A DNA stretch of 64,000 nucleotides from Amoebophrya sp. A120 (GCA_905178155.1 CAJINV010000014.1:1229858-1293857), one strand, 5' to 3'; counted from the stretch's first letter, positions 10,401-64,000 are shown. Notes: generated by a model not told the origin, from the letters alone. Program-made: numbers and translations.

Positions 10401-11243
10401 TGCTACCTTGTGTAAAAACGTGGCCTACGCCCCATCTTTGTCATGCAAATCTGCATTTTAGTATTATATTAATTAAATCCCAATATGCTCCTTCTCGTGC
10501 GCAGGCCCACTAGAAGCGTTTTCTAGTCATGTTTGTGTTTCGGAATTTGTAATCCTCGGGCCAGGATATTGACAAGGTTCTCAATTTCTGACGATGCGGC
10601 TAAACTTGCGAAACATACATGGCTACTTAGACTCCAAGGCCAAATCTGTCTTACGCAACGCACAAAACTTGGCTGACTCGGGCGGCAAAATGTTGCACAT
10701 CTTGACTTTAATAAGGGGGGGACGTTTTTACACAGGATACGGCTGACGCCGACCTCCACTGATGCTCCGGCGTACGCCCGCCTTCTAGAACCGGTTGCAG
10801 CACACTATTGGGCACAGGGAATGGGAAAGCTGCGCTCCCAGATTTTTGTGCCGGAAACGGGCACCCCGGGGGTCGATGCCGACCTGATGCGTCGCCTTTC
10901 TGACGAGCGCTCGGAGGAAGTGAAGTGGGAGCTCTACACCAACATTCCCCGGCTTAACGCCACCCGCTCCAACGGCACCTATCTGGATGGCCCAAATTCG
11001 CACTGGATCGCCCGGAAACGGTCGGACTACTTGAACCCGCGGGGGCGCCGCGAGGGGGTTGACTTCTTGGTCGGTGACGCATCAGGGATCGATCTGAATG
11101 GTCTGCAGGAAGGCGTGGATTTCCTGGCTATCTGCGATCTGGACGCTTCGGATTCCACACGCAAGAACAGGCAACACGACTTGTTGAATGCCTGGGTCGG
11201 TCTCAAGGAAGGCCGCTACAAACCTCTGGAGACGCCACGATAA
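7427..11243 (+). CDS. Single-pass (type II-like) membrane protein: Pro/Gln-rich N-terminus, TM helix, poly-Asn linker, unknown domain, Tox-ART-HYD1-like ADP-ribosyltransferase domain. Exons approx 7427-7975, 8183-8279, 8540-8608, 8888-10403, 10745-11243
   Basis: Removing the 7976 and 8280 elements (each plus one DR) and a GT-AG intron 8609-8887 joins SGCS|AGVVILIVAVVLLVVGGITAGVVMWVV, NNA|AQESYQ and GN|GGGLGSNNN in frame with ORF 8995. LYHYTS...GIRSSGKL...GVHLTNLQPG at ~10042-10160. The last exon join is tentative. Confidence 0.7.
7976..8177. mobile_element. TIR/DR intron-like element, 202 bp, DR gctct
   Basis: gctct|tatgcattgttgcaaatct...agattttgcacaggata|gctct; removal restores the frame into the TM exon. 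Confidence 0.8.
8280..8534. mobile_element. Degenerate family-C TIR/DR element, 255 bp, DR tgccg/cgtcg
   Basis: Left end tatgaacgttcacagttcctcctccccctca resembles the 57018 element; right end gaggggaggagttttgtaccctcata; removal of element plus 5 nt is in frame. Confidence 0.65.
8903..8988 (+). repeat. (AAC/AAT)n coding microsatellite encoding poly-Asn
   Basis: aacaataacaataac... run in frame with ORF 8995. Confidence 0.85.
10404..10739. mobile_element. TIR element, 336 bp, DR decayed
   Basis: taccttgtgtaaaaacgt ... acgtttttacacaggata; removal of element plus 5 nt puts ORF 8995 in frame with ORF 10821; contains tttgtcatgc. Confidence 0.55.
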
Positions 11244-15025: not shown

Positions 15026-15531
15026 AGCAGTATAACATCGATTTTTGGCAGGACGGAACTGCTGACATTTCAAAAAGTGAGAGAGAGAGCTCGTCTCGCC
15101 GGCCTCAAAAGCGACACCGCAAGTTTGTCCGTTCCTTCACTTGCGCACGTCTGAAGGAAAAAGCGCTCTGAGATAAAACTTGTGCTCAGTAAAACAGATG
15201 ACCGAGGAGAGGCACAACCTGTTTCCTGGTCTCGAGCGCGCGCTATACACCCTTGTAAGTATAAGTACCCAATAAGTATTGAAATCAAGCGACATCACGA
15301 TCCTTTTCAGCGATCAGTTTTACTCGTCGACGACGGGATAGGATCATTAAAAGGTACAGCGACTGAATCTGAATGTTTCTGTACTTAAAAATGTACGGTA
15401 AGAACGGTTTGCTATCCAAATTTACTTCATTTTGTTCGAGTCGATATTCGTAGACAGCACTCATCTCATCTTCAAAGAGCCGAAGCACAACAGGAACCAA
15501 AACGATCAACACTGCAAACCAAGCGCACGAG

Positions 15532-24195: not shown

Positions 24196-24385
24196 TGGGA
24201 TCGAGAGCGGACTTGTCTCGATCCCCCTGTTGGGAATTACTACTACTACATACTGATCCATGAGCAAAAAGAGAGCGAAAGACCACGAGGGATGATCCGG
24301 AAGAGCTCAAGCAGGGCCTTGAACGACCTTTGACGCCACGCCACGGCCGACTAAGAAAGAGGGAGCGCTTGTTCTTTTTACTGTT

Positions 24386-27084: not shown

Positions 27085-30000
27085 ATGGAGGATTTTCTAA
27101 TTGTGGAAAACACATCATCAACGTCCAGTGCGAAGATTTCTAACAGCCGCGAGCAGACGAAGCCTGCAGACGACGCGGTAGAAGAAGAACACGAATCCTT
27201 GGCCCAGCCCCGCGCTGGTGGACCACCTGCACCACCGACTACTAGCAGTAGACCTGGTGACCACGACCACCACAACTCGAGCGAAACAACCGATGTTGTG
27301 CGCTTTGTTCCAGCAAACGAAAGCACAGAGTCTTTCGAGTTTCGTCCTGGCAAGCGAGGCCACGCGGAAGAAGTAGAGGACGTCAATAATGATGCTGTGT
27401 CCTCTCCTGGTGCGGTGGACAATAAGCCGCAAAAAGCGCCGCAAGAGGATGACAGTCATCCATCTGCGGACAGAGACGACGACGAGAAATGCAAAGCTGG
27501 CGCCGGCAAAATAGAAGAAGCTGTCAAAGATGATGAACAGCCCCGCAAGAAGAAGGAGAGCGATCGGAATGAAATAATAAATGCGCAGCATGAAGATCGG
27601 GCAGAAGCTGTAGGTACACGCCACCAGCATCTTCGTGCAAAAAATTTCAATTTTCAAATCCCAGTTGCAGACGAAATCGAACTGCTCCAGCAGCTGATTT
27701 ACTGGCGCCTGAAGCAGCGGCTGCTGTGGATGAGAAAGCAGCAGTTGCGGGGGCGGAAGATCCCGCTGCAGTACCGCACGCTATTGGAGATCGAGGAGAA
27801 AGTTGATTTTGTCGTTTCGGAAGTGTTGCTTCGAAAGATCGTGGCGTTTCTGATCTTTCACGACAGTCGTGCACCACCAGCCGGCAGAAGTGGGGAAAAC
27901 ATCCCTTCTGCACAAGAGGTAAGAGTAGTGGAAGGAGTTGAAGTTGATCCAGACGCTGATGATCCAGACGCTGTCGTGGTTTCGAACAACGTAGATGGAA
28001 ACGAGGTGCAGTATGCATCCGCTAGTATGATTACGGGTCCTCCTCCTCGTCGCACTCGCGTGGAAGGAGATCCAGATCACCACGCCCAGCAGCCCACCAG
28101 CACATCGACTACCTCGTCCGCGGCGCATCTGTTGCATCGCAAGAGGAGGCACCTTGTAAAGCTCCTAGATCATCATCACCACAACAAGCACAACAATAAC
28201 CACCGAAACAACAGGACGAGAAGACATGGGACGATGATGAATAAAGGGAAGGACGGCTTGGATGAAGCTGGTGAAGAAAACGGGGAGAGCCTCCACGAGC
28301 AGCAGGGAACAAGAAAGAAGACGAGTTTGTTTGATAAGCAAGTGCGCGCGATCTATCAAATGCAAAAATGTCTGGGTCTGGAAACTTGTGATGCTGGATG
28401 GCGTCTCATGATGAGGCCACAAATGCTGGCTCAGCATGACAAGTTTCTGAGCTTCTAGGTGTTGCCTATTGATTCTGCATGACAAACTGCGTTTCTGCAT
28501 CACAGAAAAATGGAGCTCTTGAGTGACGTGCATGACAGATTTAAGAGTCATGCCAGACAAGCATGACAAACATGAACTTTTCCAGACCCAGACATTTTTG
28601 CAATTGATACGATCTGTAAGATGCTTTTCTTCGCCGAACGGCTGCAGCCACGGTATTTATCGCACGTGGTGGCGAAAAAGAAAGAGAAAACAAGTAAGGA
28701 TGAGCATGTTCAAGCGGCTTCTACTTCTCAGAAGACTGGCGAACAACATCGTGCGGGCGACGATGATATTAATCAGCTTACTACAGATGACAACGTCCTC
28801 GTAGCGCCGGGCGAAGGCGAAAAGAAGTCAGGATCCTCGCCATCGGCAACCTTTCCACCAGCTGCTGGGCTGGAAGTAGTAAATGGCGAGGGCAGCAAGA
28901 GAACGCAGCAAGACAAGCAGCAAGAAGGTGGACCTCTTGTAACAGCAAAGACAAAGAGACAGGAACCAACCGCAAAAATAGAAGTTGACGCAGCGGCTAA
29001 AACTTCAGCTACAAAAGTTGCAGTTGTGAAAGCTGCCAAGGGGAAGGCCAAAGCAGTGGCGACTAGGAGAAAGCGCAGCAGCAGTAGTTCTTCGAGTTCC
29101 TCAAGCGGTTCCTCCTCCTCCTCTTCTGGATCAAGTTCGTCATCGTCCTCTTCTAGTGGCAGCAGTAGCTCTAGCTCCTCCAGCAGCGGAAGTAGTAGCT
29201 CTTCCTCCGGTTCGAGTTCGTCTTCCTCTGGGAGTGATAGCAGCAGCAGTTCCTCCTCCTCTGACAGCAGGAGCAGCCTGGAGCGGCGCCGCAGAATAAA
29301 ACGGCGCGCCGCGCTTCTGGCGGCTAGGAGGAAGCAAATAGCGGAGCAGAAAAGTAGATTGAAGACAGAGGAACAGCAGGGTGGTCGTGCTGGGACGAGA
29401 GGTGCACGAGATCATGTTGGTGACGCAGCTGCACCAGGCGGTAGTACAACTTCTCACACCGGAAAAATCGCAGTCGGAACACCAATTATCGAGGAGGATC
29501 CTGCTGCATTGAAAAATAAACGCCGGCGAAAGAAGAAAAAGAAAAAGCCACTGTTCGATGCTGATGGGAATCCGATCGTAAGCAACAATCTAAGTAGGAA
29601 AGAGCGCGGGGAGAAGCGGAAACAGGAAGAAAGGCAAGAGGTCTCGGATCTGTTGCAAGTGCTGTTTCAGCAGATCAAGGACTGCGGAGCAGGAAGTACA
29701 ATTACGAGTCTACAGGAAGACGGTGAAGATGTAGTTGTACTTCCAACCACATTGGAGTTCCTGATACCGCCGAGTAGCGTCGTTGAGACGAGGGCAGCAC
29801 AAATTGTATCTGAAGTGATTGACGCGAAGCCGACTGCTCCTGTCCTCGCGCCATCCGGTCTTCTCGCAGCGCCTTCTGGTGAAGACCGGCCCTCCACGTC
29901 CACTCCAAAATCCATCTACGATGTCGCACTGTACCAAATTTTTCGTGTTCTGCGGCGAAAAGCCGGGAGAAAGTGGGGTCAGAATCTTCATGCAGTGTTT

Positions 30001-33000: not shown

Positions 33001-34572
33001 ACGACCTCCACCTGGGACCAGCTTTTGTTGGGCTACAACGCAGGAGGTGGAGCAACCTCATCATTTGTTGCCAGTAGGGGCAATAAAGACGGTACTGGTA
33101 AAAAACCGTCTCGCCAACTACACGGTCGTAAAGGCAAAGGAGCGAAGCAGCAAAGTGGCACACCAGAAGATGTTGATGACTCGTCGTCGGGCACCAGTGC
33201 TCCTCCTTCCCTCTCCTTTGTTCTAGGTTGGATGGACCTGAAGACGCAAGAGGACGCGGTGTATTACATCCACCGCGCTTGTGTTATGGCGTTCTCAACT
33301 GTTACATTCTCAACTGTTACATGGATTTGTCATGCAAAAGCACCACTATCATCCTCACGATCAAGCTGCTCCGCATGACAAATCTGCGGAGGGCTAAATA
33401 GCACTATAATCCTTCCCAAATCTGTAATGCAAAAGGCGCAATCTTCCTCTCCTCCTTTCACTATTGCCCTTCTTGCATTACAAATTCGTGTAACAGTTGA
33501 GAATGTAACATTTGAGAACGCCATATGTGTCTCGCACCTGTGGCGCTCCCACGGGATGAATGAAAAGGCAAACGCGGTCTCGTTTCTGCTGCCGGAACAG
33601 TTCTCGAGAAATCGAGTTGCAACTACTAGTGAAGAACAGGCGGGAAATAACTACAAAGCGGTCAACAACACGTCATCACGGCACCTCCTCGCCATCTACC
33701 CGAAAATCGTGACCAACATGAACCGGCAGCACCGCGCGGCCCCCACGGAGGGGAATTTGTTCCTGATGCTGTACGCCTTTTTCCGGAGTCGAGGGGAGGC
33801 CCTGCAGAGTTTGCGGACGCGCTTCGCAGCCCCGTTCGAGAACAACTGGATTGCGATGCGGGGCAAGTGGGAAAACAAAGCAATCGAACTGGAGGTGGAT
33901 GACGAAATAGTCGAAGTGGTGGAGGAGAAAGAGTTTCTGGAGAGGGCAAGCAAGGGGCGAGATGAGAGGAAAGTAATAGGCGATAAAAGCAGCGCAGGCT
34001 CCAAGAATTCCTCCGCGAATTACATGATGAAAACTACTCTGGTGCTGCAACTACAACTGGGAGACCAGCACAAAACCAGCGTAACGTCTAGCAAACTCAC
34101 CACCCGAGAGGAAACTACACACGATGGTGAACACAACCAAGTATCTTCGGAGATATTGACGCTGGACCCTTCGGTCTTATTAGCAGGAGGAGGTGGAGGC
34201 GGAAAAGCAAGAGCGGCATCTTCTGAAGTGGATGATCCCGCTACTTCCGCGGTATTCGCTTCCGTCGACAAGGTCGTGATCGTCTTGCAGACGATACAAA
34301 GGGAGGTGACATTTCCAACGTTTGCTGTGACTTCTGCTCCAGGAGCTGGAAGTGTTTATTTCGACACGGAAGTTGTTTTACATGAGTCAGAAGACCACGA
34401 ACAGGATCCTGCAAGTACAACTTCCAGCAGAAGTGGTAGGATAGTGAAGACCGTGAAGAACCTTCGCATGCCCTTGATGTCGCACCACGCGGCCATTGCG
34501 CTGTTGAATAGTTGGCACCAGGAGAATCTGCTACTGCCGGCCTTGGAGAAAATGTTGAAAAACTCCACTTAG
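27085..34572 (+). CDS. Large (~2330 aa), mostly low-complexity protein with poly-Ser tract, UVR-like helical motif and two C-terminal TrmY-like SPOUT methyltransferase units. Exons 27085-28353, 28615-33284, 33531-34572
   Basis: Element removal joins QVRAI|CKMLFF and HRACV|SHLWRSHG in frame. Unit 1: GRRDALARIATSAAYLSYG..PCEKKL..LFLDEN..VFLGAVRDIT..ARLGTQAEFTSKIVDIL. Unit 2: IHRACVSHLWRSHG..PTEGNL..LRMPLMSHHAAIALLN. UVR-like: LQSAVNSEDFVQAAVLKEEVTEL (~31165-31235). Confidence 0.7.
28354..28609. mobile_element. Family-A TIR/DR element, 256 bp, DR cgatc
   Basis: cgatc|tatcaaatgcaaaaatgtctgggtctggaa...ttccagacccagacatttttgcaattgata|cgatc; removal fuses ORFs 27076 and 28621. Confidence 0.92.
29077..29265 (+). 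repeat. Coding poly-Ser/Gly tract (~60 aa) with mixed Ser codons
   Basis: SSSSSSSSSSGSSS... in ORF 28621, preceded by RRKR. Confidence 0.85.
33285..33525. mobile_element. Family-B TIR/DR element, 241 bp, DR tgtgt
   Basis: tgtgt|tatggcgttctcaactgttacattctcaactgttac...gtaacagttgagaatgtaacatttgagaacgccata|tgtgt; removal fuses ORFs 28621 and 33427. Confidence 0.92.
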
Positions 34573-38800: not shown

Positions 38801-41800
38801 CTCCTACGCCTACACCACGGAGGACGGCACGAAGGGCCTGATCGACTGCGTGGACCGGTCTGGCGGGCCGAGCAAGTGGATCGCGAAGCCGGAAGTGTTC
38901 GGGTTGGAGGGGTCCTGGCCGTGGTCGACCTCGATGTTGCTGGGCGCGATTCTGTCCGCGACGGACCCGGTGGCGGTGATTGCGGCCCTGAAGGCGCTCG
39001 GTGCGCCCGCGCGGCTGACCTTGTTGATCGCGGGGGAGGCGCTGCTGAACGACGCGACGGGCGTGGTCTTTTTCTCGGTCTTCTGGGCCAACGCCAAGGA
39101 CAATGCGGAATTTTCCTTTCTAGGCGCGATCGCCTCCTTCTTTCGGCTCGCCGGCGGCGGCTTTGTGTGGGCTTTTGTGGGGGCGGGATTGATGCATGGC
39201 GCGCTCAAGTTCACGCACCACATGAGCTCCAAGAATTTCCTCTTTCTCACCTTCGCGTGCGTCTTTGGATTATTCCTCGTTGCGGAACAGGAGTGGTTCA
39301 GACCGGTTCACCCATGGTCCGGCGTGATCGCGGTTGTGGTTTTCGCGTTTTACGTGTGCGCGGTCGGCGAGAAGATGATTTTACTGAACGGCGGCGCCCA
39401 CCTGGCCCACGCGCACCACGAGGTGGTCAGCTTCGTCGCCGGGCTCGCGAACGACATCATCTTTTTCCTGGCTGGGATGGTGATCGGGCGTTTTCTGTTC
39501 TACTCGGGGATGGGGGGCGCCGACTTTGGCTTCCTGTTCGTGCTCTACGCGTACTGCCACATAGCCAGGGGGACGGCGATCTTCTCCCTGATCCCTTTGC
39601 TGAACATGTTCGGCTTCGGCATGAACTGGAAGGAAGGCATCATCGGCGTGCTGGGCGGCTTGCGCGGTGCGGTCGGGTTGGCGATGGCGTTGCTGATCGT
39701 GTCCGATGCGAGCGACCCGCCGCTCGATCTCGGGTTCCGGTTGCGCATCGGGTTCCACGCGAGCGGGATCGCGGCTTTGACGTTGGCGATCAACGGGGTG
39801 ATTTTTCCCTACGTTTACAACGCGCTGAACATCTACCCGCCGACCATCCAGGCCTCGCAGACGAAGATGCTGAAGTGCGCGACGCTGGCGGAGGGCATTC
39901 TGTACGAGCGGCTGGCGGAGATGCGAAATCACTGGCTGTTCTGCAACTTGAACGCGGAACACATTCTCGCTCTAGTCCCCAGAATTGCGGACATGCTCGC
40001 GGAGGAGGAGGAAAAGCACGCCGCCGGAGGTCATAACCACGATAAAGGTCATCATCATCATCATGGCCAGCACAAAGACAGCAAGGGGGACAACCACGCC
40101 TCCCACGGCAACAAAACGGTCGCGGACCGGTTACACCATTTACATCACGAGTACCACGGGGACGCGTATTACTTCAAGACGTTTCGGCAGGTCGCGGACC
40201 GGCACGAGGCGAAGTTCACCTGGGAAACGAAGAAGGGGCTGACCAACTTTCTCATCCCGGCGGCCTCCGAGTCCTTCTCGCAACGGAACGAGGACGCGGC
40301 CGCCTGGCTGCACGGGGGCTTCGGGAAGGACTTCGAGATGGTGATCCACATCTACTACTACGCCATGATGAGCGCGCTGGAGCGGTGCAAGATGGAGCGA
40401 CAGGACATGGCCATCTGGCCCGCGGCGGAGATCGGCGAGGCGCTGGAGTTCACGCACGAGGCCATGCAGGGGGTTTTACGGGCAGACAAGTGTCTGACCA
40501 AGGCGGACAACTTGATGATCAAGAAGTTCTTCCCGAAAATGCCGGACGAAATCTGGACGGAGGACCAGGACACGCAGCAACTGTTCGCCTTGGAGGTGGG
40601 GTTCTGCAAGCTCCTGGCCCGCTTGTTCGGCCGCGACATCGACCTGCCCTGGGTGGTGCGCACGGAGTGCTGTCGGACCGTCGGGAACCTGTCGACGGAT
40701 GTGGAGTCCGCGTCGAAAACTTTGCTGCTGTACTGCCTGCTGCTGGAAAACACGCGGGCGAGTCTCCAGCCCATCCTAGCCGGGGGGGACGAAGACGAGG
40801 CCGCGGGCGGCGGGGCGGCCAGGGTCAGCATCGGCGGAGCTGCTCTTGGACGAAAGTCGGTCGCGTTGGAGGCCATCCGCGCGAGCATGAGTGCGGCTTC
40901 TCTGGAGCCGGACCACGACACCAGAAAGTCAAAGCGCGCCGGAGGCGGGGGCGGGCGGAAATCCGTGGCCGGCGGGCCCTCGGCGCGGGGCGTCAAGCGG
41001 GCGCAAAGTGACGGCCTGGACAGCACGGCAAGCATGGACAGCAGTCGGAAGAAGGTATCAAATGCAAAAATGTCTGGGTCTGGAAGAGTCCGAATTTGTG
41101 ATGCTGCATTTGGATTCCAAAAAAATCTGTATTGCATGACCAGCAGGTGCAAAGGGAATGCAGTTTTGGCTACGCGGAGAGGGCATTTGTCATGCGGAAT
41201 AGGCATCGCGAAGCCCTCGAAAAGTCTGTGATGCTACGGCATGCATTACAGACATCATGGCCCATGCAAAACGTGCATGACAGGGGATTTCAAGGTGCAA
41301 AACGTGCATGACAAGGCTCAGAATCTTCCAGACCCAAACGTTTTTGCATTTCATAGAAGAAGAAGAGAGACAAATCTTCGCGGCGGGGATTTGAGGGAGA
41401 ACAGGAGAACAAGCAGTCACTAGAGAAGCAGACCATTGCAGCCATGATGCTTGGGCGAGGCGAAGACGATATGGTGAAGAGGGCGAAGGACAAATTTGCA
41501 CACTTGGCGCATAAAAACCAACATAGTAGTCATGCCAAGAATGCGTACCCCCACGCCGGCGAAGGAGAGGCTAGGAATTCAGACGATTTACGAGAACGAG
41601 ATCTAGAAGAAAACTTGTCACATGATGGTCTACTGGTGGAGGAATCCATTCCGATACTGCTCGGGGCAACGACAGAAGAAGACTCATCGGGGCCGGAACG
41701 TGGTGTCGAAATGAATTCCAATTCTACTTCAAGGCGGGTTGCTAGAACGCCAACATCAACTACACACGGTATTAGGAACAACAGTTCGGGAAAAATTGCA

Positions 41801-43978: not shown

Positions 43979-46900
43979 ATGCGAATGGTTTTCAGGAACA
44001 ACTACGGCGAAGAAAAGCCGAGGCCACTACATGTTGCGGTCGAAACCGCAATGGCCGGTGGAAAATTCAGAACAAGAAATAGAGGCCAACATGCGCCACC
44101 CCCACCGGCGAGAAACAAGGCGCCATGGCTTATAGGAAGTCGTAATAGGTTGTCGTCCTGCAGCAAGTGGAATACGAATAAGATACGTGGTCTCATCGCA
44201 GGGGCAGGAGTACTACTGTTTGACAGCCTGTTAGTACCTCCGGAAGGTGTCGGCGGCGTCCGTGGCTACACCATCTCCACCGCTTCCAGGTCGAGAAGAA
44301 CGACAACCACATCAAAGGAAATCAGGAGAAAGAAGAGGAGAATAATCGCTACTAACCTCGTTACCGAAGGAGCCGAAGAGCGAAGATCTGACGCAGAAGA
44401 GGTGGAGGTGCATACTCAACAGTCAGCACTCGACGACCAGACGACAAGTTCCTCTAGAAGAAGTACTGAAAGAACAGAGCCTGTAGCGTTCGATGATTCA
44501 TCATCCGTAGCTCTTGATCCCGCCTTAGGCGGCGATGATAAAGCGAGAAGTAGCAAGCAGAAGGAACAATTGTTACAGATTTTATCGAAGCGTAGGACCG
44601 CGTCCTCCTCGCGGAGCACAAAAAGCAGAGGGGACAAGGCACGTGATGAAGCAGGTAGAAAAATATCCCTAACAGGTAGTAGAAGTAGTAGACGTGTAGC
44701 AGGTCCTCGTCCTCCTGCTCGAAGAATACTATCAACAGAAGAACACGACGTCGATGCAGATGGTGAAGAGACAAACGAACTCTTCAACACAGGAGAGGGC
44801 GACAGTACTTCTCCGTCTAGCGACGTAGATCATCCTGGAAGAAGGAGCAGTAGTACAACTTCCAAGTCTTCTTCTACTTCGTCAAAAGAAACAGCTTCTG
44901 CCTTCAATGATGTTGAAACTTCTATGGCAGGTGGAGCAGCCGCAGGAACCCCCCCAACATTAACCGGGTCAGCAGGAGCCGCGGTATCCTTCTTCGAGAA
45001 AATCTCCGAAAAGATAGATTCCGCGAGTAGAACGTTTCTGACACGCAAAAAAGACCCGGACGAGCGCATGGTCCGGATTCGTTCGGAGAAAACGAAATTG
45101 AAAAAAGGCTCCTCTATGCCCAGCCTGTTTTACGACGAGGTTAAATACGTTTCCGCAGAAAGATTTCAGTCCCTGATTGACCTGCGGAGAGAAGAACAGA
45201 AAAAGCAAGCTTTGCAGCTCCAACAGGAGGACAAGATGGCTACTACTTCTACGGGAAAAAATAAAGCAGCTGCTACAAGAATTATATCAAAAGGAGACGA
45301 CAAGAAACCGCGCACCATCGTCTTCAATGCCCCGACTACACAGCCGGCCGCGTCTACTTCAGAGGAAGAACATCAAGCTCCTGCAACTTGGACGGCGGCC
45401 AGCACGACGAGTATAATTCAGACAAGTGGGAATGAACAAGAAAGCCTTGGTCAGCCTCAGCACGAAGAACTACAGGATCAAAAAGCACCGTCTGCGGAGG
45501 CAAGTGCCGTGCCGAAGCCTTTTGAGATGGCAGAGATCACGCATGATATTCTGCAAGCACCACCTCCAATGATGAACAGCATGATCATGTTGTCCTCAAA
45601 TCCTACCGATGCGGGCGCCCACGGAGCCGATGGCGCCGACGGCACACAAGGACATGGAGAGGAGCACGCAGACGGTGATGCGCAACATGGCGAAGAGGAC
45701 GACCACGATAGCCACCATGTTGCGTATTTCGCCACCTACAAGGAGTGCACGCAGTATCAAAAGGAAAAATCCCCCCTCCCCACATCAAAACGAAATTTCT
45801 GATGCTGGATTTGAGTACACAAATCAGGTTTGTATTGCAGGAAAGCATTACGGTCAGATCCCCAGGCTAGGTAGGGGCGTATGCGTCTAGTTGTTCAGCA
45901 TGGCAAGCAGCTCCCCTTTAGGCCCAAGAGCATGACAAATCGCTTCCATAGTGGGGCGGAAGCTTCTGCCCTTGTCTTCTTGCATATACAAATGTGATTT
46001 GCGACCCCAAATCAGCAACGCAAATTTTTGGAAACATACCTTTTCGATATGGGGAGGGGGGATTTTTGCTTTTGATACCCAGGACGAGGAGATCACGAAC
46101 ACGCACGACTGCAAGGCGGCCGGGGAGTATTTGTTCGGCATTGGCGACATGCAGACGGGAAACATCGCCATTCAGTCGGGCGCGTCGGCGAACTCCACCG
46201 GCACGTCCGTCGGGCCGGATCGCGAGGGGTGCTACTACGAAAGACAGGCGACGGGCACGAAACGGCTGATCTGGAAAACGTCCGGCGATTCCCGGGACGA
46301 TCGAAGTAACACGGGCGTGTTTCTCTTCGTCTGCAAGGTACACCACGGGGACGAACACATCGTCCCGATCCGGTACCCTTTGCTGTTCCTCATGGGCGCG
46401 TTCGTCGTCTCTATTGGCGTGTCCTACTTGAGTCCACTCCTCCGCGACATCCTCCCCGGGTCCTTACTCCTGGTCGCGATGGGGTTCTTGACCAACACGC
46501 TAGCACATCTCGCGGGCCACGACAGCTATTTGGGCCGGCTGATCGAGGACGTGGACCACGCGGACCCGCACTTAATCTTTTGGGTCCTGCTCCCACCGCT
46601 GTTGTACGAAGACGGGTCCAGCGCGGACTGGCGGGTGTTGCGCCCGCTGTTCATCAATGCCATTCTGCTGGCGATTCCGGGGGTCATGATCTCGTTCTCG
46701 TTGATGGGCATTCTGATCCGGTCGACCTTGAGGTTACCGGGGTTAGCCGAATTCCACATCCAGCACATTTTGTTTTGCACCGACGAGTCCGCCGCGCAGG
46801 ACGGCACCGGGTTCGTGCACCACCGCACTACTCCGGACGGCGTGCCGGAAACGATCCAGTGTCTGGACCGGGACGGAGCTCCTGCGGAGGTGATCGTCGA

Positions 46901-49900
46901 CCCGGCCGTGTTTCAGGAACACAGCTGGCCGTGGTTCCACGCGTTCCTCCTCGGGGCGATTCTGTCCGCGACGGACCCGGTGGCGGTGATTGCGGCCTTG
47001 AAGGCGCTCGGTGCGCCCGCGCGGTTGACCCTACTCGTCGCGGGCGAGGCGTTGCTGAACGACGCGACGGGCGTGGTTTTCTTCAACGTCTTTTGGGATT
47101 TAGCCCGCGACGACGCGTCGGACTTCAGTTTTTCCGACACCGTGGTGGACTTCGTGCGCCTCGCCGGCGGGGGGACGCTGTTTGCGGGCATCGGGATGCT
47201 GGTCATGCATCTCGGGTTGAAGTACACGCACCACATGTCGTCGAAAAACTTTTTGTTTTTGACTTTCTTCTGCGTTTTCGGCCTGTTTCTCGTCGCGGAA
47301 CAAACCTGGCTGCCGAAACCCTTCATGCCCTGGTCGGGTGTCTTAGCGGTCGTGATCTTCGCGTTCTACGTGTCCGCGTTCGGGCAAAACATGATCCTGC
47401 TGAACGGGGGAAGCCACTTAGCCCACGCGCACCACGAAGTGGTGTCCTTCGTCGCCGGCGTGGCGAACGACGTGCTGTTCTACCTCGCCGGGGTGGTGAT
47501 GTGCCGCTACTTGTTCTACAGCCTGATGACGGGAAACGACTGGATCATGCTCCTCATATGGATGTGTCAGGATCGAAATTGACAAAGTCGAAAAATTTGT
47601 GACGCATAAAATGTAGGGCACTGAAGGCCTGCACTGGGGAGCAGGCAAATAAGACCGATTGTGCGCCTGTTTAGGGGTATACAATGTGCTGCCGGAGTAG
47701 CATGACAGGAGCAGTCATCTTTGCCCAAACAGCATGACAGGCTAGATTTGGGCGCTCCCGAAATTTGTCATGCGCCACTTCGAGACTGAGGCTCCAACTG
47801 ACATCCATCGATTATCGCATCACAAATTTTTCGACTGTGCCAATTTCGATTCTGACACTTCCATACCTCACCCTCTACGCGTATTGTCACGTCGCCCGCG
47901 GGTCCGCAATCTTCTCCCTGATGCCGCTCCTCAGCTTGTTCGGGTTTGGCATGAACTGGAAGGAGGGTCTCATCGGCGTGATCGGCGGGCTTCGCGGGGC
48001 GGTGGGCTTGGCGATGGCATTGCTCGTCGCTTTCGACCATTCGGAGACGCCGCTGGACTTGGGGTTCCGGCTCCGGATCGGGTTCCACACGAGCGGGGTG
48101 GCGTTGTTAACCCTGTGTATCAACGGCGTGGCGTTTCCCTACATTTATAATTTCCTGGACATCTACCCCGCCGGGATTCAGCCCAGTCAAACGAAAATGC
48201 TGAAGTGCGCAACCTTAGCCGAGGGGATTTTGTTCGAGCGGCTCGCGGAGATGAAGGGCCACTGGCTGTTTTCGAACTTGAACCCCGAGCATTTGCTGGC
48301 GTTGGTCCCGCGAATCGCGGACATGCTGGCGGAGGAGGACGAAAAGATCGCGGACCGGAATGCGATGAAGAACACGGTTAAAAAGAAGAGGGGCAAGGAC
48401 AGTGACAGCGAGAAGGAGACTGGTCATGGGGACGGCCACCAGGGGGTCGAGGCAAGGCTGAAGCACCTGCACCACGAGTACCACGGGGACGGGTACTATT
48501 TCAAGACGTTTCGCCACGTGGCGGAGCGGAAAGAGCTCAATTTCCAGTGGGAAAAGAAAACGGGCCTGGCCAATTTTATCCTCCCGAGTGCGTCGGAGTC
48601 TTTCTCGCAGCGGAACGAGGACGCGGCCGCCTGGCTGCACGGGGGGTTCGGAAAGGACTACGAGATGGTGATCCACATTTTCTACTACGCCATGATGAGC
48701 GCGCTGGAGCGCGCGAAGCTCGAGCGGGGCAGCATGGCCATCTGGCCGGCGGCCGAGATCGGGGAGGCGCTGGAGTTTACGCACGAAGCGATGCAAGGGG
48801 TGTTACGCGCGGACAAGTCACTGAACAAGTCCGAGAACCTGATGATCAAAAAATTCTTCCCGAAAATGCCCGTGGACATCTGGACCGAGGACCAGGACAC
48901 GCAGCAGCTGTTCGCGCTGGAGGTGGGATTCTGCAAGCTGCTGTCCCGGTTGTTTGGCCGCGATTCCGACCTGCCCTGGGCCCTGCAAACCAGGTGCTGT
49001 CGCACGATGGGGACCAAATCGACCGACGTGGAGTCGGCCTCGAAGACGTTGCTGTTGTACTGTCTCCTGCTGGAAAACACGCGGGCGAGTCTGCAGCCAA
49101 TCTTGGCGGGTGGGGAAGAGGAGGCCGGTGCCTTGATGGACAAGGGCATCCGACAGTCCGTCGGTGGGGGCGGCGGTGTATCCATAATTGCAAAGCGACG
49201 GCTTCGGATAGTCTGGAAAGTTGTCATGCTAGAATTTGAATTTGTAAAAAGATATCATGTGATGAAGATGAATGGAAGAATATACTGACCACGAGCGACC
49301 GCTAGGCATGATAATGTTTTGTCGTCGCCCCATAAGCGACCGCTAAAAAGATTTATACGAACTGTGGCAAAAATCATCTTCCAGATAAACGTCGTCCGAC
49401 CACGTGTTTGCAATGCATACCTGATGCGCAAGTCCGTGGCGCTGGAAGCCATCCGTCAGAGCATGATGAACTCTGCGGGGAGCGACGATGTGGGTATTCC
49501 GGTGAAAGGCAAGAAAAGGAAATCCGTCGCAGGAGGCGGTCGGGCCAGCCGCCAGGCCAGCGTGCGGAAGAGCGGCCTCCGGTCCAGCAGGAATTCCGGG
49601 CCGGCCAGCGGGCTGTCCCTGTCGCTGGGGAAGAAGAAAAAAAAGAAGAAGGCCGAAGGGGATAGTAAAGACACTAGCGATTACTTTTATCGAATGCAAG
49701 TAGAAGGTTGATGATGGCTGGGTCTGAAAGAGTGCAGAAATGTTGGTCATGCTGGTTTGTCGTAGTGTTACTGACTCAGAAGGTGTCGCGTACAAGCTCT
49801 ACTATTGTACAGATTTTGAGAAGGTGTCTAAATGCCTACGCCGCATGAGAAAAAGTGCCCTCGGTTGGTGACAAGAAGTCGGCAACTTTTGCTGTTGATG

Positions 49901-52004: not shown

Positions 52005-55000
52005 ATGGTGGTCGTTAGGAGTGCTACAACTTCCCTACTTGCACTGCAAGTAGGAACGACAAGCATAATCCCTCTGGTTGTCGTTGCTCACGCCCTTTCT
52101 GCTGGACGCACTCGCAGCACTTCTCCCAGTGGTCTTCTGCAGAAGAAGCCGAGAAGGGGCACGAACCTGCTGCAGAGAGGGCGGAACGGAGCCGAAACTG
52201 CGGGCGCGGAAGATGTTGCCGTACTGGAAGTCGAAAAAGCGACAATCGTTGGTGACGAGATTCACCATTTGCAAAGCGCGACTTCTCTGTCGTCCTTGAC
52301 CACTGAGGATATTAAGGCGCTGGCGCAAGAAGATGAAACTGGAAGAAAACCCGCCTCTTCAGAAGATTGTGACGGGGCTAGGAGTTCATTCTCTTCTGCT
52401 TCCGGAACAACCACAAGGAACGTTGTCACTTTGGACTTGCAGGATGAGGCGGGGGAAAAGTTTCTGCAGATGAAAGATGCTGACAGGATGTTGAAACAGG
52501 ATAAAAAAAGCCGAACCGCCGGGCAATCATCTTCTGCATCTATGGACGAAAGAACGACAACTCTGGAAACATCTGCAGACGAAGAAGATCTTCAGCAAGT
52601 AGAACCAAATAAACAGGAGCGCACGGGCGAGACGATTCGGTCAGTCCGGGTGACGCACATTCCTGCCGGCATGAAGAAACCGTACGAGAGCTCGATTCCC
52701 AGTTTGTTTTTCCACCACTCGGCCTTTGTGCAGATGGAGCGGAGTGAAGCCGAGCAGGACATTGCAGTGGGGAATGCGTGGGAAAATGGGACGAGTGACG
52801 ATGTTCTCGCAGGAGCATCGTTTTTCGAGCACAGCGCGACGAAAAGTAGGAAGACGAAACATGCTCTGGCTGAACAGCAAGAGGAACGGAAAGAAGAGTC
52901 TCGAAAGGAGAAAACCGAGCAGAAACAGGTACAACCGCAGTTCCCACAGGGGCAAGCTGCTCAGCAAGGCGTAAACCAGTTTGGCGCTGGAGCTGCGCAG
53001 CAGTCGCAAAACATCAACCAATTTGGACAACAACAGCAGCAACTACTGCAGGCCTCTTCGACGAACGCAAACGCGAATGCTAGGCTGCAAACGCAAACGA
53101 CGAACGCAAACGCAAACGCAAACCCGTTCAGCGCCCCCGCGTTGCAACCACCGCAGTCGGGCGTCCGGTTGACTCCGCCCGAGGGGCGGGTGAACGCCTG
53201 CATGGACGAGGTTCCCTGGGTCGACACGCGCCTGAGCCAGCAGGAGCAGCTGCACCACGCTTTCCACGTGACGTTTTTCGCTCAAGCGGGGCACTGCGGC
53301 CACGGCGAGGAAATTCGGAGTCAGGCGTGTTGCCGCCAGGCTGGGGAGCATCTCTTCGGGGAAGCGGTCGCCAACAACATTGTCGCGAACAACTTCATGA
53401 TCCACCAGGGCCCGAACCTGCGCGGGTGTTGGTACCAGCAGGGCCCGGACGCGGGAAAACAGCTGTTCTGGAAAACCGTGGGCGACCCCCGGGACTTGAG
53501 ACACAACCACGGACCTTATTTGAGGGTATTAAGCATGAAGTAGATGCTGATTTGAAAATTTTGATTTGAACAGAAACTGCGGACGCGTTACTTAAGTAAG
53601 TTCTTTGAAAACAGGTAGCGCTATCATCAATAATGCTAGTTGTACTTCTCCCCGAAAATAAAGAATTTCCACTTTCGTCCTGCTCTCTTTTGATATCCAA
53701 CCCGCTCTACTAGTACCTACGTCTGGATCTGTAAGATGAACTAAAAACTACCCTTCCAGGTGTGCAAAGTTTTCCACGCGCCGCTGCACCACCCGCCGAT
53801 TTTCTACCCGCTTATGTTTCTGCTCGTGGCCCTGGTCGTGTCGGTTTGTGTGTCCTACACGGGGAAGCTGATCAACGGGTTTTTGCCGCCCTCGCTTCTC
53901 CTGGTGCTTTTCGGCTTTGCGACCAACTTCCTGGGCTACCTCTCTGGCCCCGAGTCCGAGATTGGTTACCTGGTCGAGCAGGCCAGTCACTGCGACCCGC
54001 ACGTGATCTTTTGGCTGTTGTTGCCCATGCTGCTGTACGAGGACGGAAGCGGCTCCGATTGGCGCGTCCTCCGGCCGATCTTCGTCAACGCAGTGATTCT
54101 CGCCGTTCCGGGCGTGGCGATCTCCTTCCTGATCATGGGCTGCTTGATTCGGACGACCTTTCCCCTGCCCCCGATCGAGGAACTGCACCCGGAGCACGTG
54201 TATCAAATGTAAAAATGTCTGGGTCTGGAAGAGTCCGAACTTGTGATGCTGCATTTGGATTCCAAAAAGATCTGTATTGCATGACCAGCAAAGGGAGTGC
54301 ACTTTTGGCTACGCGCAGAGGGCATTTGTCATGCGGAATAGGCATCATGAAGCCCTCAAAAAGTCTGTGATGCTACGGCATGCATTACAGACATCGTGGT
54401 GGCCCATGAAAAACGTGCATGGCAAGTCTCAGAATCTTCCAGACCCAGACACGTTTGCATTTGATAACGTGTGGATCTGCTTCTGGAACCAAGCCACCGG
54501 GCAAATGACGACGCAGGAGCGGAGCTTCAGCCCCGAAGACCCGCGGCGGTTCGCGCTGCGGCCGGTGATCCAACCGAACGGGAGCACGCAGATGCAGATG
54601 GTGCGGCGGAGTCCGCAGGAGTGGCAGACCCTGTACGTGAACAGGCCCTGTCAGGTGCCGCCGAACCCGAACGGCGGCGCCGTGGTGATCCCCGACCCCA
54701 CCAGTCGGGTGGACGGGGCCTGGCCCTGGATGATCTCCTTTCTACTCGGTGCCATCCTGTCCGCGACCGACCCCGTGGCCGTGATTGCCGCGCTGAAGCA
54801 GCTCGGCGCGCCGGCCAGGCTGAGTTTGCTCGTCGCGGGGGAGGCGTTGCTGAACGACGCGACCGGGGTTGTGTTCTTCAACCTGTTCTGGGAACTCGCC
54901 TCCACCGAGGCGGACTTCGACCCGGCGTACGCACTCTGGGTGTTCTTCCGGCTCGCGTGCCTCGGTCCGGTGGTCGCGTGCCTCGGGATGGGCGTGATGC

Positions 55001-58000
55001 ACGGTGTGTTGAAGGTCACCAACCACATCGAGGTGAAAAACTTCCTCTTCATGACCGTGTTTGTGGTGTTTTTCCTGTTCTTCTTCTCCGAGCAAACGAT
55101 CATCGGGGTCCCGCTCTTACCCGTGTCCGCGGTGCTGGCCGTGGTGGTTTTCTCGTTCTACGTGGCGGCCATCGGGCAGAACATGATCTTGTTGAACGGG
55201 GGGGAGCACTTGTCCCACGCGCACCACGAGGTGATCGGCTTCATCGCGGGGGTGTGCAACGACACCATTTTCTACGTCGCGGGCGTGGTGATGGCGAGAT
55301 ACTTGTTCTTTTCCTCCATGCTCAGCTCCGACTGGATGTTCCTGGGCATTTGCTACCTCTACTGCCACCTCGCCCGGGGCATCGCGATGTTCTCGCTGAT
55401 GCCGGTGATGAACTTCTTCGGGTTTGGCGTTTCCTGGAAGGAGGGCATCATCGGGGTGTTCGGGGGCCTGCGCGGGGCGGTCGGGCTCGCGATGGCGCTG
55501 CAGGTGGCCATGGACCACGGGAACAGCCCGTTGGACCTGGGGTTCCGACTCCGCATCGGGTTCCACGTGTCGGGCATCGCGTTGCTCACCCTGTCGATCA
55601 ACGGCGTGGTGTTCGGGAAGGTCTACAATGCGTTGAAGCTGTACCCGCCGGCCATCCAGCCGAGTCAAACGAAAATGCTGAAGTGCGCGACGCTGGCGGA
55701 GGGGATCATCTTCGAGCGGCTGCAGGAAATGAAGTCCCACTGGCTCTTCTGCAACATCTCCGCGGAGGCGATCCTCGGGCTGGTGCCCTACGCATTGCAA
55801 AAGTATCGTACTCGTGTAAATGCATCACAAATTTCCTCAGCATGAGAAAAAAAATTTGTAATGCGGATTTAGCTTAAGAACAAGACTTGTAATGCATGAT
55901 TGCAATACAACGAGTGCGATACTTTTGCACAGGATATGCACCGGATCTCGGACATGCTGGCAGACGCGGCGGGCCAGGAGTACGGAGGAGGACACGGCGG
56001 CAATAATCCATCTACGAGGAACCACGAGTTGCAGGACGACCTCCTGAACGCGGTGCAGGGGGGGCGCCCGGCGCAGAAGCAGTACAGCCACACGATGATG
56101 GAGGCTATGCACCACCTGCACCACGAGTTCCACGGCAGCGCGTACTACGAGAAACAGTTTGTGCAACTGTCGAAGGGGTGGAAGGCGGAAGACTTCCGGT
56201 GGGAACAGTGCTACGGCCTCACCTCGTTCATCATTCCCTCGGCCTCCGAGTCCTTCGCGCAGCGGAGTGAGGACGGCGCCGCCTGGCTGCAGGCGGGGTT
56301 CGGCCAGGACTACTCGATCATCATCGACATCTTTTTCGGCGCGGTCACGGGCTCGCTGCAACGGTTGAAGCGGGAGCGGTGCAGCATGGCGGTGTGGCCC
56401 GCGGACGAGATCAGCGAGGCTTTGGAATTTACGCACGAAGCCATGCAGGGCGTGCTGCGGTCGGACAACAGTCTGGACGGCACGGTTTCGCCCGTCATGA
56501 AGATGTTTTTCAAGGAGATGCCCATGCAGATCTGGACCGAGTCGCCGGAGATCCAGGAGAAGTGGGCGTTGGAAGTGGGGTTTTGCAAGCTCTTCCACCG
56601 GCTGTTCGGCACCGAGGTTCCGATGGACGCCAACACGGGGTCCGTCGAGGGCGGCGACTTTGCGCAGTTCGAGCACATATCAAATGCAAAAGTGTCTGGG
56701 TCTGGAAGAATGCGCGATTTGTCATGCAGCTTTTCCATGACCCATGAGGTCTGGAATGCAGCACCTAGCATGACAGACTCTGCGCGATCTCTCTCATGCC
56801 TATCCTGCATGAGAAACTTCCTCCCAACTTGGACAAAACTGGGCGACTTTTGGCAATCATGCAACACAGATTTGCAAAACGCGGTGCATCAGATTTGCAT
56901 GACAAGATTTGCATGCTTCAGATTTAGCATGACAAGTTGCATCCTTCCAGACCCAGACATTTTTACATTTGATAGCACAAGGGGCGAACCCTCCTGTTCT
57001 GGTGTCTGCTGATGGAATATGACAGTGCACAACTCCCCCTCTCCCTCATTTGTCATGCAAAATACCCAATCTACCCTTTGCCTCTTGGCACTGTTTGCAT
57101 GACAAGTTCTGGTAGCCCAAATAGCACTACAATCTAGTGTAAGTTTGTCATGCAAAACCGGCATTCTTGCTGATGCTTGTATTGCCGTTTATGCTATACA
57201 AATGAGGGGGAGCGGGAGTTGTGCACTGTCATATGGAAAATACAAGGGCCTCCTTGCAACCTATCGTCGCGGTCGGGATTGGGGAAAACTCGTCCTCAAG
57301 CTCGAGCAAGTTCGCTTCGGCGCAACGCAGCAGCGGGCGTGCGCGGGAAAACAGCCGCAACTCCGCGCAGAGGGCGAGCAACCGGCCGTCGGATCAGAAA
57401 GGGCCGGCAAACAAAGGTCCCATGGGAGAGGGCGAAGGGCGCGGCGGATCTGGTGCATCTGGGAGCATCGAAGCTGGAACCAGCAGCAGCTCGGGTGACG
57501 AAAGTACTACACAAGAACATCTTCAAAACCGAGCTTTTCGGACTGGCCAGACGCGGGAGGATTTGATTGCTGAGTATCACGCAGCGATGCAAGAGGATGA
57601 GGAGGATGTTGAGGAGAGCGCGGCAGATAGTTATGACAATTTCTACGAGGACGAAGCTCTTCACCAGCATGCTGATCCGGCACTGCTCGACGATAGCGGA
57701 ACAAGCAGAAGTAGCGGCACAAGCTCAACGTCGTCGGCGAGTAGCAACAATTCTACCGCGCGATCATCTTCGAGCAGCTTGGAAGAAGAGAACCTTGGAA
57801 CAGCTACAGCGAAGAATGCGTCCAGAACCAATAATTTCAAAAGCCGCAGCAGAAATTATCGGGAGACTATTCCCGCCTTCTTCTCCATCTTCTCCTCGTC
57901 ATCTCAGTCCTCTTCGGGGTCGGAGAACGAGCGCAGTGAAGATTTAAATACCAATACGCAACGAAGTAGATCTTCCCCTGCACAAGCACAACTAGCATCT

Positions 58001-59077
58001 TCGAGAAACCAAAATCACGTGAGGAAGAGCGCGCCATTCCATTTGTTCAAACAGGGTGCAGCTGCAGAGGGTGCTAGTACAACCACGGATGTTGTTGAAA
58101 CAAGAACCCGGCTGCAAAAGAACCTCGTCCACAATTCTACTTACTCTCGTCCCTCCACCGCTTCGGACGGCGACCTCGAGGAGTTCCTCCAGCAGGACGT
58201 CGAGAAAGCGCGTCGTGGGCTCTTTTTCGACGGCGCGCACGAGATGCCGTCGACCCAGAACGACCAGCGGTCGGGCAACACGAGTGGGCGGGCGAGCCAG
58301 CAGGCCGTCCCGCAGGCGGCGTTGGCGCAGTTGGACGTGAGTTTGCGGCGGATTCTGTACGCGACGTATCAAATGTAAAAATGTCTGGGTCTGGAAGAAT
58401 GCAACTTGTCATGCGAAATCTGAAGCATGCAAAAATCTGTATTGCATGATTACCAAAAGTCGTCCAGTTTTGACCAAGTCGGAAGGAAGTTTCTCATGCA
58501 GGATCGGCATGAGAGAGATCGCGCAGAATCTGTCATGCTAGGTCCTGCATTCCAGACCTCATGGGTTATGGAAAATCTGCATGACAAATCGCGCATTCTT
58601 CCAGACCCAGACATTTTTACACTTGATACGACGCGGGTGTTACTCATCAAGGCGGTGTTTGAGAAGTACCCGCGCGTCGGCCGGGTCTGGCTGCACGCCA
58701 TCGTCACCGAAGCGCTCACGCAGGACCTGTACAAACAGCTGGAGCTGTCCGCGACCTCGGGGCTGCTCACGGAGAAGGAGCTGGGGCTCTTCCACGACAA
58801 CGTGTTCCACGCGGTCACCCACGCGATCCAAAACTACCGGCAGATGCGCGGGCTGGACACCTTCGCGGCCATCGACAGCAAAGACGCGCCCCCCGGCTAC
58901 CGGGGCCCGCCGATCGGGCCGATCCACTTCGATTTGGGCGGGGAAAAGAACCGCCGCCAAGAAGCCCGGGACGTGCGGAAGAGGCTGCGGGGCCCGGGGA
59001 AGAACAGGAGAGAGCAGTTCACCGGCAACGGACAGAACACCGGGCAGAACAACAACGCCAGGGGGGCAAGTAAGTAA
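52005..59077 (+). CDS. CPA1 Na+/H+ exchanger paralog 3: one GT-AG intron (53526-53759) plus five TIR elements
   Basis: Joins YLR|VCKV, LVP|RISDML, FEH|KGRTLLFWCLLME|NTRASLQPI and LYAT|RVLLIKAVFEK agree with paralogs 1/2; PEHV|WICFW restores the frame. Signal-peptide-like N-terminus. Confidence 0.9.
54201..54466. mobile_element. Family-A TIR/DR element, 266 bp, DR acgtg
   Basis: acgtg|tatcaaatgtaaaaatgtctgggtctggaagag...cttccagacccagacacgtttgcatttgata|acgtg. Confidence 0.93.
55789..55936. mobile_element. Short TIR/DR element, 148 bp, DR tgccc/tgcac
   Basis: tacgcattgcaaaagtatcgtactcgt...acgagtgcgatacttttgcacaggata; the join gives LVPRISDML versus paralog LVPRIADML. Confidence 0.88.
56678..56974. 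mobile_element. Family-A TIR/DR element, 297 bp, DR gcaca
   Basis: gcaca|tatcaaatgcaaaagtgtctgggtctggaag...cttccagacccagacatttttacatttgata|gcaca. Confidence 0.93.
57018..57233. mobile_element. Family-C TIR/DR element, 216 bp, DR tggaa
   Basis: tggaa|tatgacagtgcacaactccccctctccctcatttgt...acaaatgagggggagcgggagttgtgcactgtcata|tggaa. Confidence 0.93.
58367..58628. mobile_element. Family-A TIR/DR element, 262 bp, DR cgacg; reverse complement of the 56678 copy
   Basis: cgacg|tatcaaatgtaaaaatgtctgggtctggaag...cttccagacccagacatttttacacttgata|cgacg. Confidence 0.93.
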
Positions 59078-62110: not shown

Positions 62111-64000
62111 ATGGCCTCCACAACCTCCACGTCGATTGCAGCCAACAACACGTCTTTGCCCCTCATCCGCGGTCTCTTGGACCAACTGCAGGCGCACATC
62201 GAGGAGTATTCCATGAGTACCAACCGCACCCGGTGGAAACGGTTGAAAAACGACATCATCCTCAAAGACCAGGATTACGAGCAGGCACTGAAGCGACTAG
62301 ATCCCAAGAAGGGCGACTATGCATTGCAAATATGTCTGGGTCTGGAAAAATGCCAGGTTTGTCATGCTCTGCTAGCATGACTGTCAACGTCAAGTCTGTC
62401 ATGCAAGGTACCCACAAGCGCCACTTTTGTGTCATGCAAAAACCCAGCACCAGCTTCTCATGCAGAATAGGCAACACCAAGCGACTCAAAAACCTGTCAT
62501 GCTGAGCCGGCATTCCTGGCGTTCTCTTGATTCGCCAACCAGCATCAGAAGTTTCAGACCCAGACACATTTGCATTTCATAGCGACCTGGAAGTCCCGAC
62601 GTTCGTTGAGGCCCAGTTGAAGGACGACCTATCGGCGCTGGGCACCGTGGCGGCGGATGTCGCTGGGCACAGTTTTTTGTAACCTCTAAAGGCACGCTTG
62701 ATGAACTTGTTAGCTGTACCAATTCAAGAACAAATCTGCGTTTTTTTTGCAACCCGGAAGAGCGTAGTAGAACAAGGACAAGCTGGTTGGTACCGGTCGT
62801 CACCTCCGGAGTTGTGCACGACTTGACACCGATCCTGAAAATGCCAGTTTTGGCTCACCATAATTTGATGACCAATCACGACGCGGTCGAAAATTTCTCA
62901 TTTGGAATCCGAATTCAACAAGAGCTGTTGACCACAACGAAGCCTCTTCTACATAAACCGGCTCGATTTTTTTCAAGAGCAGCCAGCTCTTTTGCGGACC
63001 AGGACGGTGCCGCTGGTGATGCTGTAGACAACAACGTTGCCGCAGGCGAAAGCAGCACAGTGGGTGCCCAGGCAGGGGATGGAACTACAGGAGATGCGGC
63101 TTCGCCTACCCCCGCTCCTTTCTTCATCGACCCCGTCGACGGGAAGCGTACGTCGATGGAATTGAAGCAGTTTCCGGACAAAATCCCCTCTGTGATCTCC
63201 CCGTTGGACAACGTCCGGATAAAGCAAGTCTTTAACGTTCTCGGAAACAAGGCGATCACTTCCGCAGAGGAAGCGACGACAAACGAAAACACATCTGGGT
63301 GGCCGAAGAATTTCTGGAAGAAGTTCAACCAGCTGGTGCTCTCGAATGTGTGGAACGATTTCAAGGCGGCGTGTCAAGCCGGAAAGCTGGACAAGAAGGG
63401 CAAAAATAACACCCCCCTCGGGTGGGCGCCGCGCATCGAGGAAAAGAAGATGCAGATGGCCGAGGGGTGCGAAGTCATTTACCAGAGCTTGAAGAACAGG
63501 ATCGGGAAAGCGAAGGATTTAGTGGTTGGAAAACAGGACTACTTTGCGGTGCCCGGTGACCCAGTGGAGGAGTTCAACACCCCTGGAGGCGGGGGAGCAG
63601 AAGACGAACCACCGGTGAGTTTCTCGATCGATCCCTCTGAAGATGAGGGGGCAAGAACATCAGAAGTAGAACAAGCAGGACGAGGACCTTTTTACTACCC
63701 GGTTCTCCAGGGCCCGAACCAATTCCACAAGTTGTGTATGCCGGGCGGCGGCGACAAATCCTGGCTCGTGAACTTGGAACGCACCTGCAACGCCTACCAC
63801 AAGGAGCGGCAGGCGGAGTTGCAGGCCGAGGAGCCGGCACCGGAGGACGTTTTCCGGAATCCGGAATTGGCGAGCGCCGACGCGTCGCCGGCAGCTGTGG
63901 CGGAAAAGGAGGCGAAGAAGGAAGAATTCCGGAAGAGCATGGCGAAGATCCACGACGCCGGCGGGGGTCAGGTGGAAAAGCCGCTAGCGTCCTCTTCTTC
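62111..64000 (+). CDS. Unknown protein truncated by the window end; interrupted by one family-A element and probably a second short intron (~62677-62748)
   Basis: ORF 62111 continues KKGD|LEVPTFVE after element removal and then meets a stop at ~62680; another + frame is open from ~62750 to the end of the window. Confidence 0.6.
62318..62581. mobile_element. Family-A TIR/DR element, 264 bp, DR gcgac; opposite orientation to the related 28354 copy
   Basis: gcgac|tatgcattgcaaatatgtctgggtctgg...tcagacccagacacatttgcatttcata|gcgac. Confidence 0.88.

Follow-up and report, generated by a model that had tools for sequence, protein, structure and literature searches.

Opposite-facing copies of an introner element in a Na+/H+ exchanger gene of Amoebophrya sp. 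A120

Introduction

Can an inserted element be removed from a message whichever way it faces and, if so, what is read? The question is raised by a Na+/H+ exchanger gene in a 64,000-nt stretch of DNA from Amoebophrya sp. A120, a parasitic marine dinoflagellate (the window, by which we mean the whole stretch analysed), in which an initial annotation recognised one element inserted twice, in opposite orientations, with both copies having to be removed.

Introner elements of A120 form many families whose inverted ends read TAT, seven variable nt and AAA (Farhat et al. 2021, PMC7789003). The text of that paper reports 29,850 copies of about 240 nt, with direct repeats (DR) of 3-5 nt (5 bp in the example figure) and no border dinucleotides, removed from RNA, and describes the genes as co-oriented. 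It describes the place of the cut with respect to the hairpin as variable or unknown, and the spliceosome of Amoebophrya as nearly complete, with U1 undetected. Diverse A120 introners are listed in the accessible part of PMC12130899, and an introner survey, as its available text has it, allowed opposite-orientation insertions in its method (PMC9860276). The text of PMC7789003, figures aside, contains no orientation count and does not state that the repeat is dispensable. In our literature searches, with most subscription papers outside reach, no cut register and no orientation count for Amoebophrya were found.

Results

Two orientations in one gene

The features of the host gene are as follows; the X1 contig is described below.

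52005..59077, + strand: Na+/H+ exchanger paralog 3, 7 exons, 1874 aa
53526..53759, + strand: canonical GT-AG intron, 234 nt, gone from the X1 contig; one junction shown, the other by arithmetic
56678..56974, + strand: element A, 297 nt, TAT...ATA terminal inverted repeats (TIRs), DR 56673-56677 and 56975-56979; predicted intron 56677-56978 (302 nt)
56979..57016, + strand: microexon, 38 nt, between A and C; borders assume the -1/+4 register proposed below
57018..57233, strand not given: element C, another family, 216 nt, exact 5-bp DR; 221 nt removed, right junction shown, left by arithmetic
58367..58628, - strand: element B, 262 nt, same family as A, DR 58362-58366 and 58629-58633; predicted intron 58366-58632 (267 nt)

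That A is the reverse complement of B was well founded. The alignment of the two, the check named beforehand, gave a strong match (82.8% over 297 columns, E 2e-91), and the sequences differ by one 35-nt indel. When 55 nt were taken off each end, the interiors still scored 232 when set in opposite orientation, against 30 when set the same way and at most 32 for shuffles, so the opposite orientation is real and owes nothing to the terminal repeats. The TIRs of A and B are identical at 28/30 and 29/30 positions, both elements have an exact 5-bp DR, and on folding they form long terminal stems (z -6.2 and -13.2, respectively).

Three tandem Na+/H+ exchanger paralogs, all matching Pfam Na_H_Exchanger, span 35790-59077. 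Each has its own element insertion sites; because these differ among the paralogs, insertion came after duplication. Paralogs 1 and 2 are empty and uninterrupted at the positions equivalent to A and B, and the 1874-aa ORF falls to 1449 aa with A retained and to 1730 aa with B retained, which agrees with the claim that both must go for paralog 3 to match the other two. Element C, between A and B and absent from the initial annotation, must be removed as well; the peptide of the microexon 56979-57016 aligns with paralogs 1 and 2.

In total, the A/B build recurs in the window as 14 well-formed elements and two degenerate ones; a strict scan for DR plus TIRs found 10 elements, vs 0-1 in each of 10 shuffles. 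Apart from A, B and C, the elements are:

5531-5869, strand not given: degenerate, DR 3/5, weak TIRs
10404..10739, strand not given: degenerate, 336 nt, DR 0/5, short terminal stem; intron 10403-10743, 10402 joined to 10744
12980..13229, + strand: main family, A-like; 255 nt removed, 12974 joined to 13230 in X4
13278..13512, strand not given: second family, opposite to 33285; 240 nt removed, 13272 joined to 13513 in X4
28354..28609, + strand: main family, A-like; frame restored by length+5 removal
33285..33525, strand not given: second family, opposite to 13278
41056..41355, - strand: main family, B-like, in paralog 1; DR mismatch at position 5
45755..46077, strand not given: 323 nt, DR mismatch at position 2, upstream copy retained; 328 nt removed, 45751 joined to 46080
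47557..47865, strand not given: 309 nt, in paralog 2; frame stays open with length+5 removal
49179-49419, strand not given: degenerate, DR 1/5, weak TIRs
54201..54466, - strand: main family, B-like; 271 nt removed, exon restarts at 54467, left junction by arithmetic
55789..55936, strand not given: 148 nt, one DR mismatch, upstream DR copy retained through position 4; 55787 joined to 55941
62318..62581, - strand: main family, B-like, opposite to 28354; an X1 contig piece starts at 62582

The further inverted pairs that had been proposed also held when interiors were scored in opposite vs same orientation: 28354/62318 (102 vs 16), 13278/33285 (100 vs 22), and 12980 against 41056 (57 vs 17) and 54201 (47 vs 17). 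Their placement in + strand genes is likewise sustained, as 14/14 detected window elements score in + strand coding sequence, 62318 weakly. For 5531, 12980, 13278, 49179, 54201 and 62318 the frame test is by itself uninformative.

Several other features of the window were noted. Positions 1-141 hold the right-hand portion of a relative of 45755-46077 (79%, reversed), with the outermost bases apparently missing, and 2758-2857 is an assembly gap of 100 N. The stretch 8854-10401 matches Pfam Tox-ART-HYD1 weakly (E 0.0019) and short of the curated cut-off, which may be chance. An ORF of 2913 codons (15454-24195) has internal repeats, and on its end lies 23871-24249, part of an X2 contig of depth 520.

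Removal from spliced transcripts

Removal was followed in unstranded contigs of runs X1, X2 and X4, which come from one study and whose RNA origin is only a guess. The X1 contig (6321 nt, depth 23.1) is mismatch-free in the displayed pieces. In its record 2, 58361 and 58629 stand directly next to each other, which shows directly that B plus 5 nt is gone. Between 56671 and 57233 the same record has 38 unplaced letters, the length of the microexon if A and C are each removed as length+5, and the seven-exon model, with one more inferred piece, sums to 6320 nt, the aligned record length, with an ORF of 1874 aa. By this length arithmetic, A is absent from the X1 transcript as length+5. Thus, of the two junctions at issue, that of B is seen directly and that of A by length arithmetic only, in a run guessed to be RNA.

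The X4 contigs lack 12980 (A-like), 13278 and 10404 together with two further GT-AG introns; the joint at 10404 skips 341 nt with zero ambiguous letters at a depth of 14.8. Since GT-AG introns are also missing from them, the X1 and X4 contigs are spliced transcripts. In the RNA-like contigs the skip equals length+5 for nine elements, through direct joints at 10404, 12980, 13278, 45755, B and 55789 and by arithmetic for A, C and 54201. Removed copies of the main family include both the A-like (12980 directly, A by arithmetic) and the B-like (B directly, 54201 by arithmetic). These losses from spliced contigs, together with the presence of both orientations in coding sequence of related loci, support the proposed orientation-independent removal. 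For 28354, where cover is low, no RNA joint was found among those listed; an X1 contig that begins at 28610 with 19 unplaced letters is a mere hint of its removal. A 43-nt microexon, 13234-13276, lies between neighbouring elements and, like the 38-nt 56979-57016, is retained in the spliced contig, so that neighbours are removed separately.

The alternative that removal happens on DNA, by IES-like excision in some cells or stages with transcripts made from cleaned genes, draws on the TIR plus DR anatomy, which is that of DNA transposons, and on the reservations that X1 is only guessed to be RNA and that run X5 may be a single life stage. X5 has a flat depth of 40-45 and retains the GT-AG intron of the exchanger gene, and therefore behaves as DNA; its contigs, such as 57204-58389 and 54438-55821, cross the repeats and continue into the elements without interruption, which makes a common empty-site form in DNA unlikely. 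X5 was judged on the joints listed and, since rare variants are lost in contigs, excision in a small fraction could escape: the empty site expected of an IES-like system was not seen there, and only a common form is thereby excluded. The elements are all still there in the window and in the related contigs, and removal takes unequal flanks on the two sides of an element and can do without the repeat (see below). With element-free contigs lacking GT-AG introns too, the suggestion of removal on DNA is left unsupported, and we regard it as highly improbable.

In the raw RNA runs X9 and X10 no match to the genes was found. Reads from both fell only on a 35-nt repeat behind paralog 3 (59496-59530), in large numbers; summed depth there is high in X1 and X5 too.

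Orientation and frame in related loci

A motif scan, whose detector required TA[TC] at the arm start, returned at least 144 loci (at least 142 distinct) with 334 elements outside the window among the matches listed; none of the sampled loci matches the window over more than 400 bp. An exact 5-bp repeat flanks 262/334 of these elements. Together with the window, the loci listed gave 348 elements, in families of 163, 28, 27, 17 and smaller. TAT is found at both arms in 115/118 elements, and A at positions 11-13 in 98, 103 and 114 of 118. Two elements, L044:3329-3608 and L102:74-328, have the same ends but flanking repeats of 8 bp and 7 bp instead of 5.

In a coding-frame test, with a codon model trained on window genes and the frame required across the joint, removal of length+5 restored the frame in 104/334 elements among the matches listed, vs 7 for length+4 and 3 for length+6; the 230/334 elements without a coding call were left out of the main count. 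The strand calls agree in 28/28 loci with at least two calls, window included, and the three frames are used alike (38:30:36).

The per-subfamily orientation count, made over the loci listed, largely followed the expectation of no strong bias. Relative to the host strand the main family stands at 19:30 (p=0.15) when the window is counted and at 16:26 (p=0.16) when it is not, strands borrowed from neighbours adding 16:18; the 95% interval of 25-54% leaves room for a mild bias. The A/B subfamily is at 4:6, and both orientations occur in 7/8 families with at least three calls, one family being 0:4. Against the expectation, one subfamily leans 12:3 (p=0.04, uncorrected).

The cut register and the direct repeat

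In most elements the two repeat copies are identical, which makes the exact cut ambiguous. Three elements that have mismatched repeats and RNA joints bear on the register, namely 10404, 55789 and 45755. At 10404, the message retains four bases of the upstream copy but takes its fifth from downstream of the element; the intron accordingly consists of 1 nt, the element and 4 nt. Retention of four bases (-1/+4) is the only fit for 10404, while 55789 fits 4 or 5 and 45755 fits 2-5; none disagrees. A register that takes 1 nt upstream and 4 nt downstream along with the element is thus the candidate, its exact value coming from one element in one contig.

The same element, with 0/5 DR matches, is precisely removed, and in this one case the repeat is dispensable; the proposal that recognition relies on the DR is contradicted by it. 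The fold of 10404 is no better than shuffles (z -0.6), whereas A and B fold strongly, and its removal despite the weak fold argues that a short stem suffices. Among related elements with at least two repeat mismatches, some of which are false or nested detections, 3/23 got a coding call (0/8 with 4-5 mismatches); so few calls add no support for independence from the repeat.

Strong hairpins can trigger template switching. The joints could then be reverse-transcriptase artefacts, or joining could be guided by microhomology of the 5-bp repeats, which are exact in so many elements. It is hard to see how either would account for the removal of 10404 with no repeat and a weak fold, for an intact protein matching the paralogs that needs the removal, or for the 104 frames restored by length+5, and we judge both very unlikely.

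The borders appear to be free of sequence requirements. The 10404 intron ends CT..GC, and under the -1/+4 register GT..AG borders occur in 5/118 elements, with no preference for G at +1 (38/118 vs 160/472 in the background) and no excess of AG at the intron end (14 vs 13.2 expected).

What is recognised

From the directionality of splice signals it had been inferred that recognition relies on the symmetric TIR hairpin. This reasoning is incomplete. As the TIR is an inverted repeat, an element presents almost the same ~30 nt at each end whichever way it faces, and orientation independence follows; directional spliceosomal signals could work either way. Symmetric ends therefore do not allow orientation independence to separate a hairpin reading from a linear one.

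A hairpin is plausible, although pairing on the transcript strand gave no excess of G.U over A.C (95 vs 100), with subsets at 8:21 (A-like) and 47:26 (positions 13-25, other families). This test is weak because young copies inherit their mismatches. Stem positions 4, 5, 7 and 10 pair in 37-59% of 49 elements, and 6, 8, 9 and 11-13 in 96-100%; such uneven pairing looks like a motif read by a protein, whether transposase, splicing factor or both. The 5' and 3' arms showed no compositional difference by transcript direction. The signal for removal is likely to be the terminal motif.

As to the catalyst, two lines of evidence pull apart. All three RNA-supported canonical introns begin GTA, two of them GTAT, and the candidate register sets T-A at intron +2/+3 as in these introns, a coincidence with roughly a 1 in 6 chance, which leans to a relaxed spliceosome. 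No branch-point motif was evident near the 3' end (CTRAY in 10/118), which counts against an ordinary spliceosome and, with the blind 3' end, leans to a euglenid-like system. In such a system, a non-spliceosomal endonuclease plus ligase would recognise the offset terminal stem and cut the elements from RNA, as proposed for euglenid nonconventional introns. The sequence-blind borders, the long stems of A and B, the missing branch-point motif, the undetected U1 (text of PMC7789003) and a 1-nt/4-nt offset resembling the Euglena N3CDG...CH'G N5-6/R, as quoted from PMC12501133 (slash, cut), all speak for it. It is less easily reconciled with the absence of a strand-specific pairing signal, the often unpaired stem positions 4, 5, 7 and 10, and the coincidence of the register with canonical +2/+3; moreover, the TIR introns of Fritillaria are reportedly spliceosomal (PMC11282704, in part). 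We favour a relaxed major spliceosome, which has about an even chance of being the catalyst, over a separate nuclease plus ligase, which is possible but falls short of that.

Discussion

The two-orientation observation is confirmed, in an element class that is already known. With TAT-n7-AAA ends, 5-bp repeats and a length of about 250 nt in common with A120 introners, with families, and with absence from probable mature RNA at non GT-AG borders, the window elements are most likely the published A120 introner elements, judging from their sequence. What our results add to this class is a count of the two orientations, one case in which the repeat is dispensable, and a candidate for a fixed register.

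A and B, which face opposite ways, are in our view likely to be copies of a MITE-like introner with a motif common to both ends, which the splicing machinery reads before cutting at a probably fixed offset. The element would be a non-autonomous DNA transposon that duplicates 5 bp of any sequence on insertion, as the exact repeats in 262/334 elements suggest. In the pre-mRNA, ends of the form TAT-nn-A-n-TG-n-AAA and the complement would be read, probably paired, and the cuts would lie 1 nt upstream of the 5' arm and 4 nt downstream of the 3' arm. Cutting there would remove exactly one duplication and restore the original message at any site, in any frame and in either orientation; the repeat would be a scar and no signal.

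Other systems resemble this one in part. In Polarella glacialis and, second-hand, in Aureococcus anophagefferens, TIR introners in either orientation are removed with one target duplication, according to the available text of bioRxiv 10.1101/2020.10.14.339549. Those introners recruit G[TCA] and AG from the duplication or the element, use a particular target and have an orientation bias, whereas the window elements need neither target nor border letters, and a G[TCA] donor with an AG acceptor was not characteristic of the 118. Euglenid nonconventional introns, as described in parts of PMC12501133 and PMC11282704, share sequence-blind borders, offset paired motifs and a proposed MITE origin with the window elements, and those of Euglena leave as circles. 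They differ in having CAG/CTG, spacers of 3 and 5-6 nt and a purine after the 3' cut, against TAT/ATA and 1 and 4 nt here; the Euglena signature N3CDG ... CH'G N5-6/R was not found among the window-type elements, whose ends are N-TAT ... ATA-N4 with a purine as first exon base in 70/118. The MITE introns of Fritillaria borealis, according to part of PMC11282704, likewise have TIRs and target-site duplications. An adapted spliceosome is reported to remove them even though their ends are non-canonical, but they prefer AG-AC/AG-AT borders, where the window elements show no border preference.

A bolder reading, which we hold to be doubtful, is that one genome-wide code, N/N-TATnnAnTGnAAA ... complement-NNNN/ (cuts at the slashes), is set from the end motif and tuned to the 5-bp duplication. 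It would be run by a U1-free or non-spliceosomal machine of independent origin, convergent on the offset-stem system of euglenids. If so, every insertion would be silent at any site, in any frame and orientation, and the machine would amount to an RNA repair system that reads transposon ends.

Taken alone, the orientation result is modest, because the symmetry of the ends predicts orientation independence. In combination, a fixed -1/+4 register, a dispensable repeat and freedom of orientation and frame would explain tens of thousands of exonic copies. A fixed register would also fix gene annotation in the Amoebophrya lineage and would give exact predictions for the question of how these elements are spliced.
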